DNA of 64,000 bases from Patescibacteria group bacterium (GTDB lineage: Bacteria > Patescibacteriota > Patescibacteriia > JAHJFT01): NCBI GenBank assembly GCA_028710985.1, contig JAQTTB010000002.1, forward strand, positions 86,750 to 150,749, read 5' to 3'. Positions 7,326 through 63,712 of the stretch are shown here, piece after piece. The notes beneath the pieces are model-generated. The model did not search any database, was not told where the DNA came from, and saw only the letters and a program-made list of their open reading frames with translations. The position numbers were made by a program, and so were the translations under genes. The stretch's first letter is position 1. Each line of letters begins with the position of its first letter.

Positions 7326-7856
7326 TCATTTTCTTAAAGAAACTTCGTACATTATTTCTTCGATCTTGCGAAGATTATTTTTGGCCTGATCATACTTGGT
7401 GCGCAGATATCCGGCCAGATCCAACTGTATAAGCTGGCTCATGATTTCCGTAATCGCATCCTTGATCTTCCGGACGTCCTCAAAATTCTTTTCCGTGGCC
7501 TCTCTGACCGCGCGCCTCACCAGCTCGCCAGTAAAATCCGAAAGCCCGCCGATATAAATTTCCGTATCAACCTGGCGGTCGCGAATTTCACAGACGCAAC
7601 CGCTGTGCAAAAATTCGCCAAATAATTTGGCCTCGCAGTATTCCTCAAGCGCGGCGCGCCACGAACCCTCGTGCCGGAGCGCGGGCATACCCTTTGCCTC
7701 GCGATCCAGACGCGCGAAAATTTTCTCCGCCTGTGCCAAATTCTCCTGCGCCGATTTTACGTCATCGCGGTGGTAGGAAAAAATCGCGCGCTTTGACAAA
7801 TTCAGCGCCTCATTTGAATTTCGCACGACAATCCTCCTCTTTGTTTCGTGCATCTC
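7326..7856 (-). CDS. Hypothetical helical protein, possibly translin-like
   Basis: The ORF-track start at 8012 overlaps the ATPase, so the start is placed at the internal Met (MHETKRRIVV); the family assignment is weak. Confidence 0.3.
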   Translation of the reverse strand, partial: EMHETKRRIVVRNSNEALNLSKRAIFSYHRDDVKSAQENLAQAEKIFARLDREAKGMPALRHEGSWRAALEEYCEAKLFGEFLHSGCVCEIRDRQVDTEIYIGGLSDFTGELVRRAVREATEKNFEDVRKIKDAITEIMSQLIQLDLAGYLRTKYDQAKNNLRKIEEIMYEVSLRK

Positions 7857-11883: not shown

Positions 11884-12840
11884 ATGTTATTCAATCTCTT
11901 TGTATTAATCGCCGGGCTCGCGATTCTCATAAAAAGTGCCGACTGGCTCGTGGACGGATCGTCTTCAATTGCCAAAAAACTCGGCGTGCCATGCATCGTT
12001 ATTGGCCTCACCGTAGTTGCATTCGGCACATCTGTCCCCGAATTGGTCGTTAATATTCTTTCCAGTTTCAAGGGCGCCACGGATCTTGCCATCGGCAACA
12101 TCATCGGCAGTAATATCGCGAATATAATTTTAATTCTTGGGATTACTGCAATATTTTATCCCCTAGCGATAAATTCCGGCACCACCTGGAAAGAAATTCC
12201 GTTGAGCCTGCTCGCCGCTATCCTTGTTTTCATTCTCGCGAACGACACTCTGATCGATGGCACCGGAGAGAGCGTACTTTCCCACATTGACGGCCTGGTC
12301 CTTCTGTCTTTTTTCTTAATCTTTCTTTATTATACCTACAGCATCAGCCGAAGCCGCACCGATTCTAAGGACAATATAAAAACCTACAGAGGCTGGCTTT
12401 CCTTAATTATGATATGCGGCGGCATTGCCGGCCTTGCCCTTGGCGGAAAACTTGCAGTTGATTCAGCTATTAAGCTTGCGGAAATCGCCGGCCTTAGCCA
12501 GGCTTTTATCGGTCTCACAATCGTCGCGGTCGGCACCTCACTTCCCGAGCTCGCCGCTTCGGCGGTCGCGGCGTATAAAAAGAATCCCGACATCGCCGTG
12601 GGCAACATCGTCGGCTCCAATATATTTAATATATTTTGGATCCTTGGTGTAAGTTCGATAATCCGGCCGCTACCGCTTACTCCGGGTATGAACTCTTCCA
12701 TCATCGTCGCCGCTCTCGCCACAATCCTGCTTTTTTCCTTTATGTTTATCGGCAAACGGCACATTCTTGAACGCTGGCAGGGCGTCGGATTCCTAATCTG
12801 TTATGCCGGATATTTACTCTTTTTAATATCGCGGGGCTGA
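11884..12840 (+). CDS. Ca2+/Na+ antiporter (CaCA/YrbG family)
   Basis: Duplicated alpha-repeats GTSVPELVVN and GTSLPELAAS. Confidence 0.85.
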   Translation: MLFNLFVLIAGLAILIKSADWLVDGSSSIAKKLGVPCIVIGLTVVAFGTSVPELVVNILSSFKGATDLAIGNIIGSNIANIILILGITAIFYPLAINSGTTWKEIPLSLLAAILVFILANDTLIDGTGESVLSHIDGLVLLSFFLIFLYYTYSISRSRTDSKDNIKTYRGWLSLIMICGGIAGLALGGKLAVDSAIKLAEIAGLSQAFIGLTIVAVGTSLPELAASAVAAYKKNPDIAVGNIVGSNIFNIFWILGVSSIIRPLPLTPGMNSSIIVAALATILLFSFMFIGKRHILERWQGVGFLICYAGYLLFLISRG

Positions 12841-12886
12841 ACCCTTGATTTTATTAATCGAATTTGATAACATATTTTCATTATTT

Positions 12887-12969
12887 GGGCCGGTAGTCCC
12901 GATGTTCCGCCACGGGCGGAAATCGGGATCCCGACATCCCGACGCAGTCGGGATCGTCGGGGCTCAGTC
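12887..12969 (+). pseudogene. Copy of the tRNA-Lys 5' end (gggccggtag...ctcagtc) interrupted by a 66-nt insertion led by a conserved 32-nt hairpin
   Basis: Seventeen nucleotides identical to positions 1-17 of the intact tRNA at 13008; the hairpin tcccgatgttccgccacgggcggaaatcggga occupies 12897-12928. Confidence 0.5.
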
Positions 12970-13007
12970 AGAATATTCTTAAAATAAATATAAAAAAATG
13001 ATAATTT

Positions 13008-13084
13008 GGGCCGGTAGCTCAGTCTGGTAGAGCAACTGCCTTTTAAGCAGAAGGTCCTGGGTTCAAATCCCAGCCGGCCTACCA
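13008..13084 (+). tRNA. tRNA-Lys (anticodon UUU)
   Basis: Cloverleaf folded by hand: acceptor gggccgg/ccggcct, D-arm gctc/gagc, anticodon loop cuUUUaa, T-arm ctggg-ttcaaat-cccag, encoded CCA. Confidence 0.85.
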
Positions 13085-13140
13085 ATCGAGTAGTCAGTAA
13101 TCAGTATTCCGTAGTAGATTATTAAGTAAGTCGAAATATA

Positions 13141-13280
13141 TTTGCTGGGATTTGAATCGGGGATGGTAAGGGGGCGCAGCCCCCTTGCTTACCGAGGAAA
13201 GCCCACGAAAACCCGAAGGTTTTCGTGAGAGTCCCGAGCTTGTCGAGGGACGATGTGAGAATCCCAGCCGGCCTACCAAA
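13141..13280 (+). other. GC-rich structured element closed by gctgggatt / aatcccagc and ending in a duplicate of the last 20 nt of tRNA-Lys (aatcccagccggcctacca)
   Basis: Internal hairpins gggggcgcagccccc, cgaaaacccgaaggttttcg and tcccgagcttgtcgaggga; the 3' tRNA duplicate is seen directly at 13261-13280. Confidence 0.45.
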
Positions 13281-13287
13281 TTAGTTA

Positions 13288-14472
13288 ATGAAAATTAGTT
13301 TCTACGCGCTCGGCTGTAAAGCCAACCAGGCCGACAGCGATAAAATCCGCGACGCCGCGGCCGCCAACGGATGGACGATTGTCCCCTACGGCGAATCCTG
13401 CGACTATTCAGTAATCAGTGGCTGCGCCGTCACCTCCGGCGCCGAACAGCGCACGCGCCAGATGCTCCGCGCCGCGAAAAAATCCGGCAAGCAAGTAATT
13501 GCCGCCGGATGTTTTGTTAAAAAAATTTCAGAGATTGATTTATATTTTTCAAATCCCGACCGGGTTATTGAATATCTTAAATCTCGGCACTCCGCAAGAC
13601 CGCAGTCCGTGCCGCGCCCGTCAACGCGCGCCTTCATCCGCATCCAAGATGGCTGTAATTTTAACTGTTCATACTGCCTGATCCGCAAAATCCGCGGCAA
13701 ATCGGTTTCCCGGTCGTCCGCGGAGATAATCGCGGAAATCAATCAGGCCGGAGCCGCTGGTGCCAAAGAAATAATACTGACCGGCATCAATATCTGCCAG
13801 TACCGCGAAAACAAACTCCGGCTCGCGAACCTTGTCGGATTAGTGCTTTCTCAGACAACCATTCCGCGGATCCGGTTCGGATCAGTTGATCCCCGCCCCA
13901 TAACCGCCGAATTTATCGCGCTTTTCCGCGAACCCCGCCTCATGCCGCACCTGCATCTCTCTCTCCAAAGCGGCAGCAACCGCATTTTGAAACTCATGAA
14001 TCGCGCCTATTCGGCGGAAGATTATACGCGCATCGTCCGGGCCGCGCGCCGCGTCAATCCCCTGTTTTCATTTTCCACGGATATCATCGTCGGATTCCCG
14101 GGTGAAACCATGAATGATGTTAATCTGACAATTGAATTAATCCGCCGGATTAAATTTATAAATATTCACCTCTTCCCGTACTCCGAACGGCCGGATACCG
14201 CTGCCACCCGGCTGAAAAATAATATATCTCCCGCGGAAATAAAATCGCGCATGAATATCCTTTCCCGCGCATCGGAAAATACGCGCAACGAATGGTTGAA
14301 AAATTATTCCGGCCGAACACTAGAAGTGCTGTATGAAAATAATAGTAAAAAAAGTAGTAAAAATATCTGGTACGGATATTCTCCGTATTATTTCCGTATG
14401 CGCACACGTTCATCGAAAAATCTTCACAATTTAATTTTATCCACACCGGCAACTCTTGACACCATGCCTTGA
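13288..14472 (+). CDS. Radical-SAM methylthiotransferase of the MiaB/MtaB/RimO family
   Basis: N-terminal MTTase domain with three Cys (CKANQ, SGCAV, AAGCF) and the radical-SAM CNFNCSYC motif. Confidence 0.8.
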   Translation: MKISFYALGCKANQADSDKIRDAAAANGWTIVPYGESCDYSVISGCAVTSGAEQRTRQMLRAAKKSGKQVIAAGCFVKKISEIDLYFSNPDRVIEYLKSRHSARPQSVPRPSTRAFIRIQDGCNFNCSYCLIRKIRGKSVSRSSAEIIAEINQAGAAGAKEIILTGINICQYRENKLRLANLVGLVLSQTTIPRIRFGSVDPRPITAEFIALFREPRLMPHLHLSLQSGSNRILKLMNRAYSAEDYTRIVRAARRVNPLFSFSTDIIVGFPGETMNDVNLTIELIRRIKFINIHLFPYSERPDTAATRLKNNISPAEIKSRMNILSRASENTRNEWLKNYSGRTLEVLYENNSKKSSKNIWYGYSPYYFRMRTRSSKNLHNLILSTPATLDTMP

Positions 14473-14672: not shown

Positions 14673-14696
14673 TTGACTGTAAAACTTGTAACAAAA

Positions 14697-14735
14697 TAAA
14701 ATATCCTCCGAATATCATCGGAGGATATTTTATTG
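14697..14735. terminator. Bidirectional intrinsic terminator (atatcctccg / cggaggatat stem followed by a T run)
   Basis: 10-bp perfect stem, A run upstream and T run downstream; sits between the small ORF on the plus strand and murG on the minus strand. Confidence 0.7.
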
Positions 14736-52158: not shown

Positions 52159-52233
52159 TGGTAGCCTCAAGGGGAATCGAACCCCTGTTCCATCCTTGAG
52201 AGGGATGTGTCCTAACCGTTAGACGATGAGGCC
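52159..52233 (-). tRNA. tRNA-Glu (anticodon CUC)
   Basis: Reverse complement folds as acceptor ggcctca, D-arm gtct/ggac, anticodon loop ctCTCaa, T-arm agggg-ttcgatt-cccct, encoded CCA; an intrinsic terminator follows at 52100-52128. Confidence 0.85.
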
Positions 52234-59138: not shown

Positions 59139-59167
59139 TTGACTTAATATTACAAACATGCTAGAAT
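59139..59167 (+). promoter_or_regulatory. Sigma-70 promoter TTGACT-17-TAGAAT, probably the original tRNA-Pro promoter and now 420 bp upstream of the tRNA
   Basis: Seen directly. Confidence 0.5.
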
Positions 59168-59190
59168 TTAGTCAAATTATTCTTCATCGG

Positions 59191-59211
59191 GCCTGCCTGC
59201 GGCAGGCAGGC
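59191..59211. repeat. REP-like perfect palindrome (GCCTGCCTGCGGCAGGCAGGC) inserted into a copy of the tRNA-Pro 5' end (catcgggc|REP|ctgtagc)
   Basis: Further copies are at 59753-59772, 59799-59814, 60442-60461 and nested at 63673-63712. Confidence 0.6.
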
Positions 59212-59230
59212 TGTAGCTTAATACTCAATT

Positions 59231-59284
59231 AATATTTCATCGGGCTGTAGCGTCCCGACATTCCGCCGCGGGCGGAAGTCGGGA
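59231..59284 (+). repeat. 22-nt direct repeat DR1 (aatatttcatcgggctgtagcg, identical to the tRNA-Pro leader plus 5' end at 59574-59595) followed by the conserved 32-nt hairpin tcccgacattccgccgcgggcggaagtcggga
   Basis: The hairpin has the same stems as the tRNA-Lys-linked copy at 12897-12928; differences fall only in unpaired positions. Confidence 0.6.
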
Positions 59285-59309
59285 CTCATACTTTAGAATA
59301 TTAAAAAAG

Positions 59310-59627
59310 ATGAGAAAAGGATTTGTATATATTTTACAAAGCACCTCTAATGGTAGATTTTATATCGGCTCTAGCACAGATGTAGCGCATCGACTAATTG
59401 ATCATAATTACGGCAGAGTGAAATCAACGAAAAACAAGGGGCCATGGGTATTAAAGCTTGTACAATCCTATGATACAATTACCGAGGCAAAACAAATTGA
59501 ATACAGACTAAAAAAATTAAAGCGTCGAGATTTTATTGAAAAAATCATCGAAGAGGGCCATATTAAGCTAAAGAATATTTCATCGGGCTGTAGCGCAGTT
59601 GGTAGCGCGCATCGTTCGGGACGATGA
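59310..59627 (+). CDS. GIY-YIG nuclease-domain protein (about 90-aa domain; the reading frame runs on into tRNA-Pro DNA)
   Basis: GFVYILQS...NGRFYIGSSTDVAHRLIDHN is the GIY-YIG core; the last 15 codons are encoded by DR2 and the tRNA. Confidence 0.65.
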   Translation: MRKGFVYILQSTSNGRFYIGSSTDVAHRLIDHNYGRVKSTKNKGPWVLKLVQSYDTITEAKQIEYRLKKLKRRDFIEKIIEEGHIKLKNISSGCSAVGSAHRSGR

Positions 59628-59659
59628 GGCCGCGGGTTCGAGTCCCGCCAGCCCGACCA
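59584..59659 (+). tRNA. tRNA-Pro (anticodon CGG)
   Basis: C1:G72 acceptor pair typical of bacterial tRNA-Pro, D-arm gcgc/gcgc, anticodon loop ttCGGga with G37, T-arm gcggg-ttcgagt-cccgc, encoded CCA. Confidence 0.85.
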
Positions 59660-59784
59660 TTATAAATACAAATCTATTTCGAAAAGGGACTCGAAGGGCG
59701 CGAGAAAATGCGACCCTGGGAGCATTTGGTGCGCAGCGCCCCGGACCGCGAGCCTGCCTGCCGGCAGGCAGGTCGGAGCGAGCG

Positions 59785-59823
59785 GGAGTCCCGCCAGCCT
59801 GCCTGCCGCAGGCAGACCCGACC
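59785..59823 (+). repeat. Duplicate of the tRNA-Pro 3' end (gagtcccgccagcc...cccgacca) interrupted by a REP palindrome
   Basis: Seen directly, 126 bp downstream of the intact tRNA. Confidence 0.55.
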
Positions 59824-59835
59824 AAAAAATAAATA

Positions 59836-59868
59836 AAACCGCCGCCGGATACCGGGGCGGTTTTTGAA
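59836..59868. terminator. Bidirectional intrinsic terminator (ccgccgccgg ata ccggggcgg followed by a T run)
   Basis: Seen directly between the tRNA-Pro region and cobA. Confidence 0.55.
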
Positions 59869-60408: not shown

Positions 60409-60441
60409 CTCGTAGAGATTATTGTATTAAATTCCTACAAG

Positions 60442-60461
60442 CCTGCCTGCCGGCAGGCAGG
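60442..60461. repeat. REP-like palindrome CCTGCCTGCCGGCAGGCAGG between cobA and nrdJ, followed by TTCCTACAAGCTACAAGCT
   Basis: Seen directly. Confidence 0.6.
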
Positions 60462-60486
60462 CTACTTCCTACAAGCTACAAGCTCG

Positions 60487-63672: not shown

Positions 63673-63712
63673 CCTGCCTGCCGCCTGCCTGCCGGTAGGC
63701 AGGGCAGGCAGG
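63673..63712. repeat. Nested double REP-like palindrome upstream of nrdJ
   Basis: cctgcctgccgcctgcctgccggtaggcagggcaggcagg. Confidence 0.5.

Follow-up and report, generated by a model that had tools for sequence, protein, structure and literature searches.

Here, in a 64,000-nucleotide (nt) stretch of a Patescibacteria group bacterium genome (GenBank assembly GCA_028710985.1, contig JAQTTB010000002.1, positions 86,750 to 150,749 of the forward strand; the whole stretch is hereafter called the window), we describe a tRNA-Lys(UUU) locus that probably bears the traces of two small mobile elements, independent of each other, which both invade tRNA genes and yet leave an intact tRNA behind. On the 5′ side, a displaced copy of the start of the tRNA is split by a pair of GC-rich hairpins; on the 3′ side, a structured non-coding element is followed by a duplicate of the end of the tRNA (Table 1). 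Complete counterparts of the 5′ module at other tRNA genes retain a small GIY-YIG nuclease gene, and counterparts of the 3′ module form a protein-less family that is found at several tRNA species. On the basis of the architecture of these loci, of the presence and absence of each module among orthologues and of the relationships between the elements, we propose a route by which tRNA genes could be invaded without loss of the tRNA.

Two dispensable modules beside an intact tRNA-Lys gene

The sequence ATTTGGGCCGGTAG, which covers tRNA positions −4 to +10, occurs exactly twice in the window against a chance expectation of 0.03, once in the displaced fragment and once at the intact gene. The 66-nt insert that follows the fragment (12897-12962) folds as two hairpins, with a folding energy of −54.1 kcal/mol (z = −5.4) for 12880-13010, after which seven further nucleotides of the tRNA are found; the arrangement is thus the one given in the initial annotation, a copy of the first 17 nt of tRNA-Lys split after position 10. 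We read CTCAGTC as the continuation of the fragment because the tRNA sequence likewise resumes past the hairpin, with matches of 8-10 nt, at loci L004, L100, L124, L009 and L091; CTCA also directly follows the hairpin at the tRNA-Pro locus of the window, and four of the seven nucleotides could therefore be cassette sequence. The putative promoter precedes the 5′ fragment rather than the intact tRNA and scores under the threshold of the scan tool.

On the 3′ side, AATCCCAGCCGGCCTACCAA is present in two exact copies (13066-13085 and 13260-13279; chance expectation 0). This repeat of the tRNA end had been recognized correctly and placed one nucleotide too far downstream, at 13261-13280. The GC-rich, hairpin-packed element described between the tRNA and the repeat is likewise borne out: it is closed by a 10-bp stem (GCTGGGATTT/GAATCCCAGC) with three hairpins inside, and the segment 13085-13283 folds with −73.1 kcal/mol (z = −4.4). 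A covariance model of its family, R1 (see below), matches 13141-13278 with 122 bits (E = 9e-30), the sole copy in the window. For either the 3′ element or the inner tRNA, no convincing promoter of its own was found by reading and none by the scan tool.

An independent assembly, Logan contig L001 (SRR22315509), is 100% identical to the window over 4448 nt from position 13025, and the 3′ element with its repeat is therefore no artefact of the source assembly. The duplication by misassembly that the initial annotation had named as a possible refutation is excluded for this part of the locus; the 5′ part lies outside L001, which stops short of the 5′ module, and its junction in the window is known from one assembly. 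L001 begins inside tRNA-Lys, and as typical assembly k-mers exceed the length of the repeats, this break may be due to population variation on the upstream side of the tRNA.

Na/Ca exchanger, tRNA-Lys(UUU) and MtaB stand in the same order in four related genera, and the five loci compared are polymorphic for the two modules: the window has both, L002 has only the 3′ module, L004 and L100 have only the 5′ module, and L097, a plain promoter–tRNA gene, has neither. The modules are independent and dispensable, not parts of the single signature that had been proposed. This presence/absence polymorphism, of the kind expected of homing cassettes, is seen between genera, as all comparisons reported here are between genera or metagenomes and none is at the strain level. 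Between genomes, the orientation of the tRNA also switches, and the modules turn with it. A −10 element, TAACAT, lies at the matching relative place in L004, clear promoters are present upstream of the fragments in L100 and at the tRNA-Pro locus of the window, and terminators follow the 3′ fragments at the tRNA-Pro locus and in L002; the outer fragments therefore mark the original ends of the gene, with the intact tRNA inside.

ARAGORN and Rfam find three tRNAs in the window, Lys(UUU), Glu (52159-52233, minus strand) and Pro(CGG). The tRNA-Glu gene is without flanking fragments or GC-rich hairpins, and the elements are therefore not at every tRNA gene. None of the intact tRNAs is interrupted and the hairpins are confined to truncated copies, unlike a tRNA intron or intervening sequence. 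At gathering thresholds, Rfam 15 detects only tRNAs in the whole window, and in permissive scans of 12700-13400 and of L124 the best non-tRNA matches (E of about 0.07-10) lie far under gathering scores. The intron-like or tRNA-like fold suggested for the 3′ segment finds no match among Rfam group I introns, ribozymes or tRNA-like families. Weak matches to Clostridiales-2, permuted transfer-messenger RNA (tmRNA) and mascRNA were set aside as chance or as echoes of the tRNA, and ARAGORN detects no tmRNA. A 61-residue antisense open reading frame (ORF; 13094-13279) was rejected as a small gene, being a typical translation of antisense tRNA.

MtaB makes ms2t6A37 on tRNA-Lys(UUU). The tRNA gene adjoins the MtaB gene in five related genomes (the window, L002, L004, L097 and L100), on the strand of MtaB or on the opposite one. 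In the window the MtaB-like protein (13288-14472) starts 8 nt past the 3′ repeat with no terminator between; it is 100% identical to an NCBI protein labelled ‘Patescibacteria group bacterium’, and its next relatives are 56% identical. Further downstream, a perfect 17-bp palindrome with a 6-nt loop (14695-14734; AATAAAATATCCTCCGA...TCGGAGGATATTTTATT) lies between two convergent ORFs and looks like a bidirectional terminator.

Table 1 Features of the tRNA-Lys(UUU) locus and of its tRNA-Pro(CGG) sister locus in the window
Feature	Position	Strand	Basis or remark
Likely sigma-70 promoter, TTGATT-17 nt-TAACAT, TG upstream of −10	12845-12873	+	Read from sequence; presumed function
Displaced tRNA-Lys 5′ end (leader −4 to −1 and tRNA 1-10)	12883-12896	+	Exact 14-nt repeat of 13004-13017
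Hairpin 1, outer stem TCCCGAT/ATCGGGA, inner stem TTCCGCC/GGCGGAA	12897-12928	+	28/32 identity to 59253-59284
Hairpin 2, CCGAC type, CCGACATCCCGAC / GTCGGGATCGTCGG	12929-12962	+	Forms double-hairpin insert with hairpin 1
CTCAGTC, tRNA positions 11-17, 5′ fragment resumed	12963-12969	+	Sequence match to tRNA
AT-rich spacer	12970-13007	+	Shares AGAATATT and a-rich...ATG with start of tRNA-Pro cassette
tRNA-Lys(UUU), intact, CCA encoded	13008-13084	+	ARAGORN; Rfam tRNA 72.5 bits
AT-rich spacer from tRNA to 3′ element, without terminator	13085-13140	+	Sequence and terminator check
Structured non-coding element (119 nt) with invariant end GTGAG, T-loop-associated family, subfamily 2	13141-13259	+	Covariance model R1
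Inverted copy of local T-arm	13144-13156	+	Part of 13141-13259 element
Hairpin A	13165-13189	+	Part of 13141-13259 element
Hairpin B	13204-13227	+	Part of 13141-13259 element
Hairpin C	13231-13251	+	Part of 13141-13259 element
Duplicate of tRNA-Lys 59-77 (T-loop end, T-stem 3′ strand, acceptor 3′ strand, CCA) plus one base	13260-13279	+	Exact repeat
Sister locus, tRNA-Pro(CGG), nuclease gene retained	59139-59865	+	Layout as at tRNA-Lys
Promoter TTGACT-17-TAGAAT	59139-59167	+	tRNA-Pro locus
5′ fragment no. 1, split at position 4/5 by hairpin CCTGCCTGCGGCAGGCAGG	59188-59217	+	tRNA-Pro locus
5′ fragment no. 2 (−10 to +12), 22-nt repeat bounding cassette	59231-59252	+	tRNA-Pro locus
32-nt hairpin, second copy	59253-59284	+	tRNA-Pro locus
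GIY-YIG ORF	59310-59627	+	tRNA-Pro locus; Pfam PF01541, E = 5.7e-15
Intact tRNA-Pro	59584-59659	+	tRNA-Pro locus
GC-rich 3′ element, begins with inverted T-loop	59686-59785	+	tRNA-Pro locus
3′ fragment, split at 68/69 by second hairpin family	59786-59824	+	tRNA-Pro locus
Terminator	59839-59865	+	tRNA-Pro locus

Hairpin-bearing tRNA fragments and GIY-YIG cassettes

With up to three mismatches allowed, the 32-nt hairpin 1 has two copies in the 64 kb (chance expectation 0), and both directly follow a tRNA 5′ fragment, after position 10 at tRNA-Lys and after position 12 at tRNA-Pro. The initial annotation had matched this pair correctly and had counted four differences between the copies. The count stands; the placement of all four in loops does not, since the 7/26 pair is T-A at tRNA-Lys and C-G at tRNA-Pro, a compensatory change, and only the other two positions are unpaired. 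These pairs were read straight from the sequences, as the MAFFT alignment displaced the third sequence by one column.

Every non-coding occurrence that we found of this hairpin and its relatives (two in the window and one locus each in L009, L004, L100, L124, L079, L081, L091, L133, L134 and L135) sits in a tRNA pseudo-fragment adjoining an intact tRNA, in agreement with the proposed tRNA-associated family. Across 185,579 species genomes a strict pattern of the hairpin gives four matches, one of which is a true tRNA-fragment case, the Omnitrophota locus L009; the other three are coincidences in coding sequence (IPPGAEI). The core of hairpin 1 is present in L009, and double hairpins of the hairpin 1 and 2 type recur there and in L081, L091 and L134. 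The insertion point at nucleotides 10-12 of the tRNA, noted at the two loci of the window, holds for the TTCCGCC type in six cases (Lys, Pro, Ile and a Thr-like fragment) and fails for the related CCGAC hairpins, which lie at 3/4, at 19/20 or in place of the whole anticodon arm. The CCGAC core is invariant across three phyla with outer pairs that co-vary, a pattern that favours sequence-specific recognition; the nuclease described below might use the hairpins as cis sites, or the hairpins might be selfish palindromes that survive only in dead copies.

The tRNA-Pro locus has the layout of the tRNA-Lys locus together with a GIY-YIG gene, whose product also matches weakly the N terminus of TIGR01453 (group I intron endonuclease). 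This ORF has no stop before the tRNA and extends 44 nt into tRNA-Pro; its homologues stop 3-10 nt ahead of the tRNA or overlap with its start (L134). We found 69 homologues of the protein, which is of about 90 residues, mostly in the candidate phyla radiation (CPR). They are 81-125 residues long, only the catalytic domain is detected in them, and the closest solved structures are the single-domain UPF0213 proteins 1zg2 and 1ywl; no domain of the kind with which homing endonucleases bind a long DNA target is detected.

At all eight GIY-YIG loci considered, in Patescibacteria and Bacteroidota (the tRNA-Pro locus of the window and seven homologues, in L079, L081, L091/92/95, L133, L134 and L135), the gene adjoins an intact tRNA and a pseudo-fragment of the same tRNA species with CCGAC...GTCGG hairpins. 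In complete copies of the 5′ type, a stand-alone gene for some 86-90 residues lies between the hairpin-bearing fragment and the intact tRNA. At tRNA-Pro in L079, and to the same design in L135, the fragment comprises positions 1-26, a hairpin replacing the anticodon arm, and positions 44-56. The hairpins at tRNA-His lie at 3/4 in L081 and at 19/20 in L091, L092 and L095, where the cassettes are in tandem. In Pedobacter fastidiosus (L133, Bacteroidota), the cassette is on the 3′ side of tRNA-Leu in two tandem copies, and TCCCGAC...GTCGGGA replaces the anticodon arm of the 3′ pseudo-copy. At tRNA-Lys(CTT) in L134 the cassette is nested and the pseudo-copy is a sequence-divergent isoacceptor: removal of the cassette and the double hairpin in silico leaves a perfect second tRNA-Lys(CTT), with stems unlike those of the inner tRNA. 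L134 is the clearest case among these loci and shows that a nuclease-and-tRNA cassette has come to lie within a resident tRNA gene.

Modules of the 5′ type without an ORF occur at tRNA-Lys in L004 and L100, at tRNA-Ile in L124 and upstream of tRNA-Thr in L009, and L009 shares the layout of the nuclease-bearing loci. We consider it most likely that the tRNA-Lys 5′ copy in the window is such a degenerate, ORF-less relic of a cassette that invades tRNA genes. The spacer at 12970-13007 is possibly, on faint resemblance, what is left of a lost GIY-YIG ORF, judging by a comparison by eye of 12963-13007 with 59285-59312 and 59570-59583.

Several further observations concern these cassettes and hairpins. 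In L133 (GCA_042647365, positions 457411-459262 of a genome contig of about 5.4 Mb), tRNA-Leu(TAA) has two GIY-YIG cassettes in tandem on its downstream side; behind each come a 3′ pseudo-copy of tRNA-Leu, in which TCCCGACCATAAAGTCGGGA replaces the anticodon arm, and a copy of the terminator. The tandem tRNA-His cassettes occupy 1-420 of L092 and 340-740 of L095, and in L095 the same hairpin pair follows a non-tRNA sequence. One hairpin (CTCCGAC...GTCGGAG) sits in the loop of another in L091, and the same loop is without it in L095. In L009 (Omnitrophota metagenome-assembled genome JACROV010000079), a 3′ fragment at 7351-7397, CCCAG[CCCCGCCTGCGGCGGGG]GATTCTGGGTCTCGGCA, lies 16 nt downstream of tRNA-Phe; it is a T-arm-to-3′-end copy in which a hairpin replaces the first bases of the T-loop. 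A second GC-rich hairpin family, CCTGCCTGC(N)GCAGGCAGG, occurs in the window at 59192-59210, 59753-59772, 59798-59816, 60440-60463 and 63674-63711. Two of its copies interrupt the outer tRNA-Pro fragments, one at 4/5 and the other at 68/69; these two points of the acceptor stem mirror each other and are the same DNA word, CGGG^CTG, on either strand. The remaining copies surround the ribonucleotide reductase gene, in ordinary intergenic sequence. Among viral contigs, matches to the GIY-YIG protein were limited to three, all short, partial and N-terminal, and the 68 matches to the inner hairpin were judged to be at about chance level.

The T-loop-associated 3′ element family

A scan of metagenomes with hairpin A, followed by the covariance model R1 built from the matches, recovered seven distinct full copies of the 3′ element, and a tRNA directly precedes each of them (Lys-UUU twice, Lys-CUU, Arg-UCG twice, Met and Gly-UCC). 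The module at 13141-13279 is of this type, a protein-less element of 115-138 nt on the 3′ side of the tRNA. Its left bound is an inverted copy of the local T-arm; its right bound is a duplicate of the local tRNA, which in each copy starts at position 56-60, in the T-loop after GGTTC, and runs to CCA, sometimes on through the terminator. In the left part, the inverted T-loop copy (consensus GGATTCGAACC) is followed by GGGGAT, hairpin A and GAGGA, and in the right part hairpin B, an optional hairpin C and an invariant GTGAGA precede the local tRNA duplicate. Compensatory changes are found at 4 of the 10 pairs of hairpin B in the family alignment. The inverted T-arm tracks the local T-loop variant (ATTTGAA in the window, GATCGAA in L123 and AATCGAA in L124), with the exception of L002, and the breakpoint right after GGTTC is common to the 3′ elements and to the end of the 5′ cassette fragment in L079.

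The cores of the element in the window and of that at tRNA-Lys-CUU in L104 are 82% identical, against 54% for the window and the orthologous tRNA-Lys-UUU locus L002; those of L120 (Arg) and L124 (Gly) are 93% identical. These relationships are incongruent with locus and with tRNA identity, which indicates movement between tRNA genes and not vertical descent. In L120 and L124 the direct repeat comprises 59 identical nt, with the whole terminator included, and this identity points to recent events. Five of the seven family members have a terminator separating the element from its tRNA.

Compared with known classes, the 3′ elements show the direct repeat of a tRNA 3′ segment that is characteristic of integrative elements (17-20 nt of it inside the tRNA and as many as 39 nt past its end), which the 5′ module does not show. 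Like miniature inverted-repeat transposable elements, they are a non-coding, multi-copy, conserved family, with seven copies across metagenomes and cores 54-93% identical; they lack terminal inverted repeats of their own and a short target duplication of fixed length, as the inverted repeat is local tRNA sequence that varies with the host tRNA and the duplication spans 17-59 nt. Among the ORFs listed for the surroundings of the Lys, Pro and L124 loci there is no tyrosine or serine recombinase gene, the elements measure 115-340 bp, and viral contigs gave no match to the 3′ element. Model R1 does not detect the 3′ element of the tRNA-Pro locus: the Lys and Pro elements are alike in architecture, without detectable homology.

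Hairpin A (GGTAAGGGGGCGNAGNCCCCTT) is also found alone in about 20 loci (L102-L129, for example at 9591 in L105, 518 in L125 and 3897 in L128), unrelated to one another and most of them tRNA-free; it may be a stable hairpin of wide occurrence or a small palindromic element in its own right. A hammerhead ribozyme in the 3′ element was considered and rejected: CUGAGGA resembles CUGANGA, but the box is unconserved (the window has CCGAGGA and L108 has UUAGGAG) and is not abutted by stem II.

Origin of the modules, alternatives and known systems

The reading that we favour, that of two separate elements invading tRNA genes, can be cast as a mechanism, and for the mode of insertion and the enzyme that moves the 3′ element this is what we infer. 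The 5′ module would insert in the first 17-25 or so nucleotides of the gene, downstream of the tRNA promoter, and would bring or regenerate the 5′ part of the tRNA, so that the original 5′ end becomes a dead fragment with the CCGAC/TTCCGCC double hairpin. The GIY-YIG gene would probably be expressed from the tRNA promoter, with its mRNA released by RNase P. The 3′ element would be moved in trans by some enzyme. We propose that a double-strand break in the tRNA gene, in the D-arm region or at T-loop position 56/57, is made possibly by the GIY-YIG nuclease, the obvious candidate, and is repaired by copying an element-bearing tRNA locus with the tRNA as the only homology; the other end would be joined illegitimately, and the displaced tRNA end would stay as a fragment. 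Such break repair would account for a fragment on one side only per event, for the variable breakpoints (12, 17, 22, 25, 30 and 56) and for the foreign inner tRNA in L134.

Several points weigh against this account. A nuclease of about 90 residues has a catalytic domain only, which makes recognition of a long target hard to account for, and a regenerated tRNA would keep any target that lies within the tRNA, leaving the escape from self-cleavage without an explanation. Break repair predicts neither the constant hairpins in the fragments nor the inverted T-arm copy. Both the Lys 5′ relic and the 3′ element are without an ORF, the examined parts of the loci with 3′ elements hold no GIY-YIG gene, and the Lys spacer is tied to a lost nuclease ORF by a few short shared words. 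In the window, L004 and L100, whose Lys loci are orthologous, the TTCCGCC hairpin occupies almost the same position and could there reflect old vertical inheritance under constraint.

Other origins would account for part of these data. The loci might be unrelated local duplications or old integrations, with hairpins that are generic selfish palindromes, similar to repetitive extragenic palindromic (REP) sequences or GC clusters, and have neither tRNA targeting nor a tie to a nuclease. As self-spreading predicts, hairpins are nested in the loops of others (L091 against L095; L100); hairpin A stands alone in its roughly 20 unrelated metagenome contexts, and the second family (CCTGCCTGC.GCAGGCAGG) occupies intergenic sites at 60440-60463 and 63674-63711 as well as tRNA-Pro fragments. 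We nevertheless regard this as unlikely, given that the CCGAC/TTCCGCC family is found only in tRNA pseudo-fragments (both copies in the 64 kb and all 10 other loci), that all of the approximately 15 tRNA fragments seen carry or abut a hairpin and none is bare, and that the TTCCGCC type lies at 10-12 in all six of its cases, over four tRNA types; the spread over non-tRNA sites that would have marked the hairpin as a generic REP sequence or terminator was not encountered. A shade less likely again, in our estimate, are attachment-site duplications left by integrase-mediated integrative elements, of which the 3′ module would be a miniature or decayed form. Integrases that target tRNA genes reportedly use, as a rule, the segment from the T-loop to the 3′ end; the direct repeat from the T-loop to the 3′ end and beyond, and the presence of the family at several tRNA species, would fit such an origin. 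It is at odds with the small size of the elements (115-340 bp), in or beside no copy of which a recombinase ORF is found, and with the repeats in L120 and L124, which contain the host’s own terminator, identical, and look like a local duplication instead of an imported attachment site (attP). The 5′-side duplications, with breakpoints at 12, 17, 22, 25, 30 and 56, are unlike one fixed crossover, and the inverted T-arm copy follows the local tRNA.

It is very unlikely, in our judgement, that the leader hairpins and the trailer element are a functional RNA of the tRNA-Lys transcript, be it a processing signal, a stabilizer or an acceptor-strand switch, as the initial annotation had contemplated in suggesting a structure related to tRNA processing. 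Palindromes in Neurospora mitochondria are said to have been proposed as processing signals. GC-rich palindromes flanking tRNA genes of that genome are on record (Yin 1981, reference within PMC4478555), and here both modules lie within the probable transcript, form very stable structures (z = −5.4 and −4.4) and keep their stems by compensatory changes, and the TTCCGCC hairpin recurs at orthologous Lys loci. Against a function in processing, orthologues lack one or both modules, down to the plain promoter–tRNA gene of L097; a terminator precedes the 3′ element in the five members noted above; the hairpins occur only in dead fragments; the same element stands at six different tRNAs with non-congruent relationships; and Rfam offers no match. 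An assembly artefact or chance repeat, finally, we can hardly credit: the source is a short-read metagenome assembly and the independent contig stops inside the tRNA at 13025, but that contig is identical across the 3′ element and its repeat, the repeats have chance expectations of 0-0.03, and the same architecture appears in many independent NCBI, ENA, JGI and Logan assemblies.

Beyond the favoured reading of the tRNA-Lys locus, we put forward tentatively, and at somewhat less than even confidence, that these loci belong to an undescribed cross-phylum class of elements that dwell in tRNA genes, comprising a GIY-YIG/CCGAC-hairpin cassette (‘tRNA-in-tRNA’) and a protein-less T-loop element of about 120 nt, with the hairpins as cis sites of the nuclease. 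The GIY-YIG member would ride on the tRNA promoter and bring or regenerate the tRNA. Insertion of the T-loop element would copy the target both ways, leaving the T-arm inverted at one flank and the 3′ end in direct orientation at the other. This would suggest an unusual mechanism, in which a single-stranded element might, for instance, fold and cap a broken T-loop end, which is then replicated. If the hairpins are cis sites, the small nuclease would be a structure-guided enzyme of a mobile element and not a classical homing endonuclease.

On the favoured reading of the loci, tRNA genes, which are among the most conserved and most transcribed of sequences, can be safe harbours in the tiny CPR genomes, with each insertion rebuilding its tRNA. 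In CPR assemblies, that reading also explains puzzles of annotation such as fragments of tRNAs, odd hairpins rich in GC and contigs that break near a tRNA. We know of no established function for stand-alone GIY-YIG (UPF0213-like) proteins, which are widespread, and the cassettes suggest one. Guidance of a small nuclease by hairpins or by tRNA-gene structure would be a possible new targeting principle, and Pedobacter fastidiosus, with its tandem tRNA-Leu cassettes and presumably a cultured isolate, could be a growable test system. In the literature on GIY-YIG, tRNA, CPR and Bacteroidetes and on T-loop-targeting miniatures, coverage of which was incomplete so that an earlier description is possible, we found no account of tRNA-gene cassettes of this kind.

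The loci resemble several known systems in part. With integrative elements that target tRNA genes (bounded by left and right attachment sites, attL and attR) they share the T-loop-to-3′-end direct repeat and the rebuilt tRNA gene, and they differ in the missing integrase, the miniature size, the additional 5′-side duplications, the terminator inside the repeat and the inverted T-arm copy. Yeast mitochondrial GC clusters, the double-hairpin elements of Allomyces mitochondrial DNA (Paquin 2000) and the Neurospora palindromes named above are short GC-rich palindromic or double-hairpin sequences in AT-rich non-coding surroundings that show signs of mobility, merging or nesting, and some adjoin tRNA genes (PMC4478555). 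The hairpins described here are likewise short and GC-rich, lie in AT-rich non-coding sequence and bear signs of having been inserted and nested, a comparison that is one of behaviour only. The mitochondrial elements are organellar and, in the available part of that source, have no described link to tRNA fragments or a nuclease cassette, whereas here the CCGAC core is conserved over three bacterial phyla and the insertion points lie within tRNA-derived D-arm, anticodon-arm, T-loop and acceptor-stem sequence.

Insertions in CPR rRNA genes concern the same organisms and again the invasion of structural RNA genes; they encode GIY-YIG proteins, are neither group I nor group II introns and lie mostly at the top or base of a stem-loop, and tRNA genes and hairpins go unmentioned in their description (PMC11270868). 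There the functional gene is interrupted, whereas here the functional tRNA is whole and the interrupted copy is a remnant. SegB of phage T4 is a much larger protein than the nuclease considered here and has a DNA-binding part. It is a GIY-YIG nuclease whose gene lies among tRNA genes; it cuts the corresponding tRNA gene region in a relative, and flanking markers are inherited along with it; the available part of its description mentions no tRNA fragments, hairpins or regenerated tRNA copies (PMC2330249), and the hosts here are cellular (CPR and Bacteroidota). In the mobile endonuclease ORFs (mORFs) of fungal mitochondria (atp6 of Allomyces macrogynus; atp6, atp9, cox2 and nad3 hybrids of Glomus), a free-standing GIY-YIG or LAGLIDADG gene brings a replacement gene end, the host gene stays functional and the native end remains nearby as a duplicated remnant (PMC3630166). 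The targets here are bacterial tRNA genes and not protein genes, the displaced piece is a 5′ or a 3′ end, the nuclease is a catalytic domain of about 90 residues, the remnants always carry GC-rich hairpins and the tRNA-Lys copy has no ORF. The fungal mORFs are all the same the closest precedent, and L134 follows the same logic with a whole tRNA as cargo.

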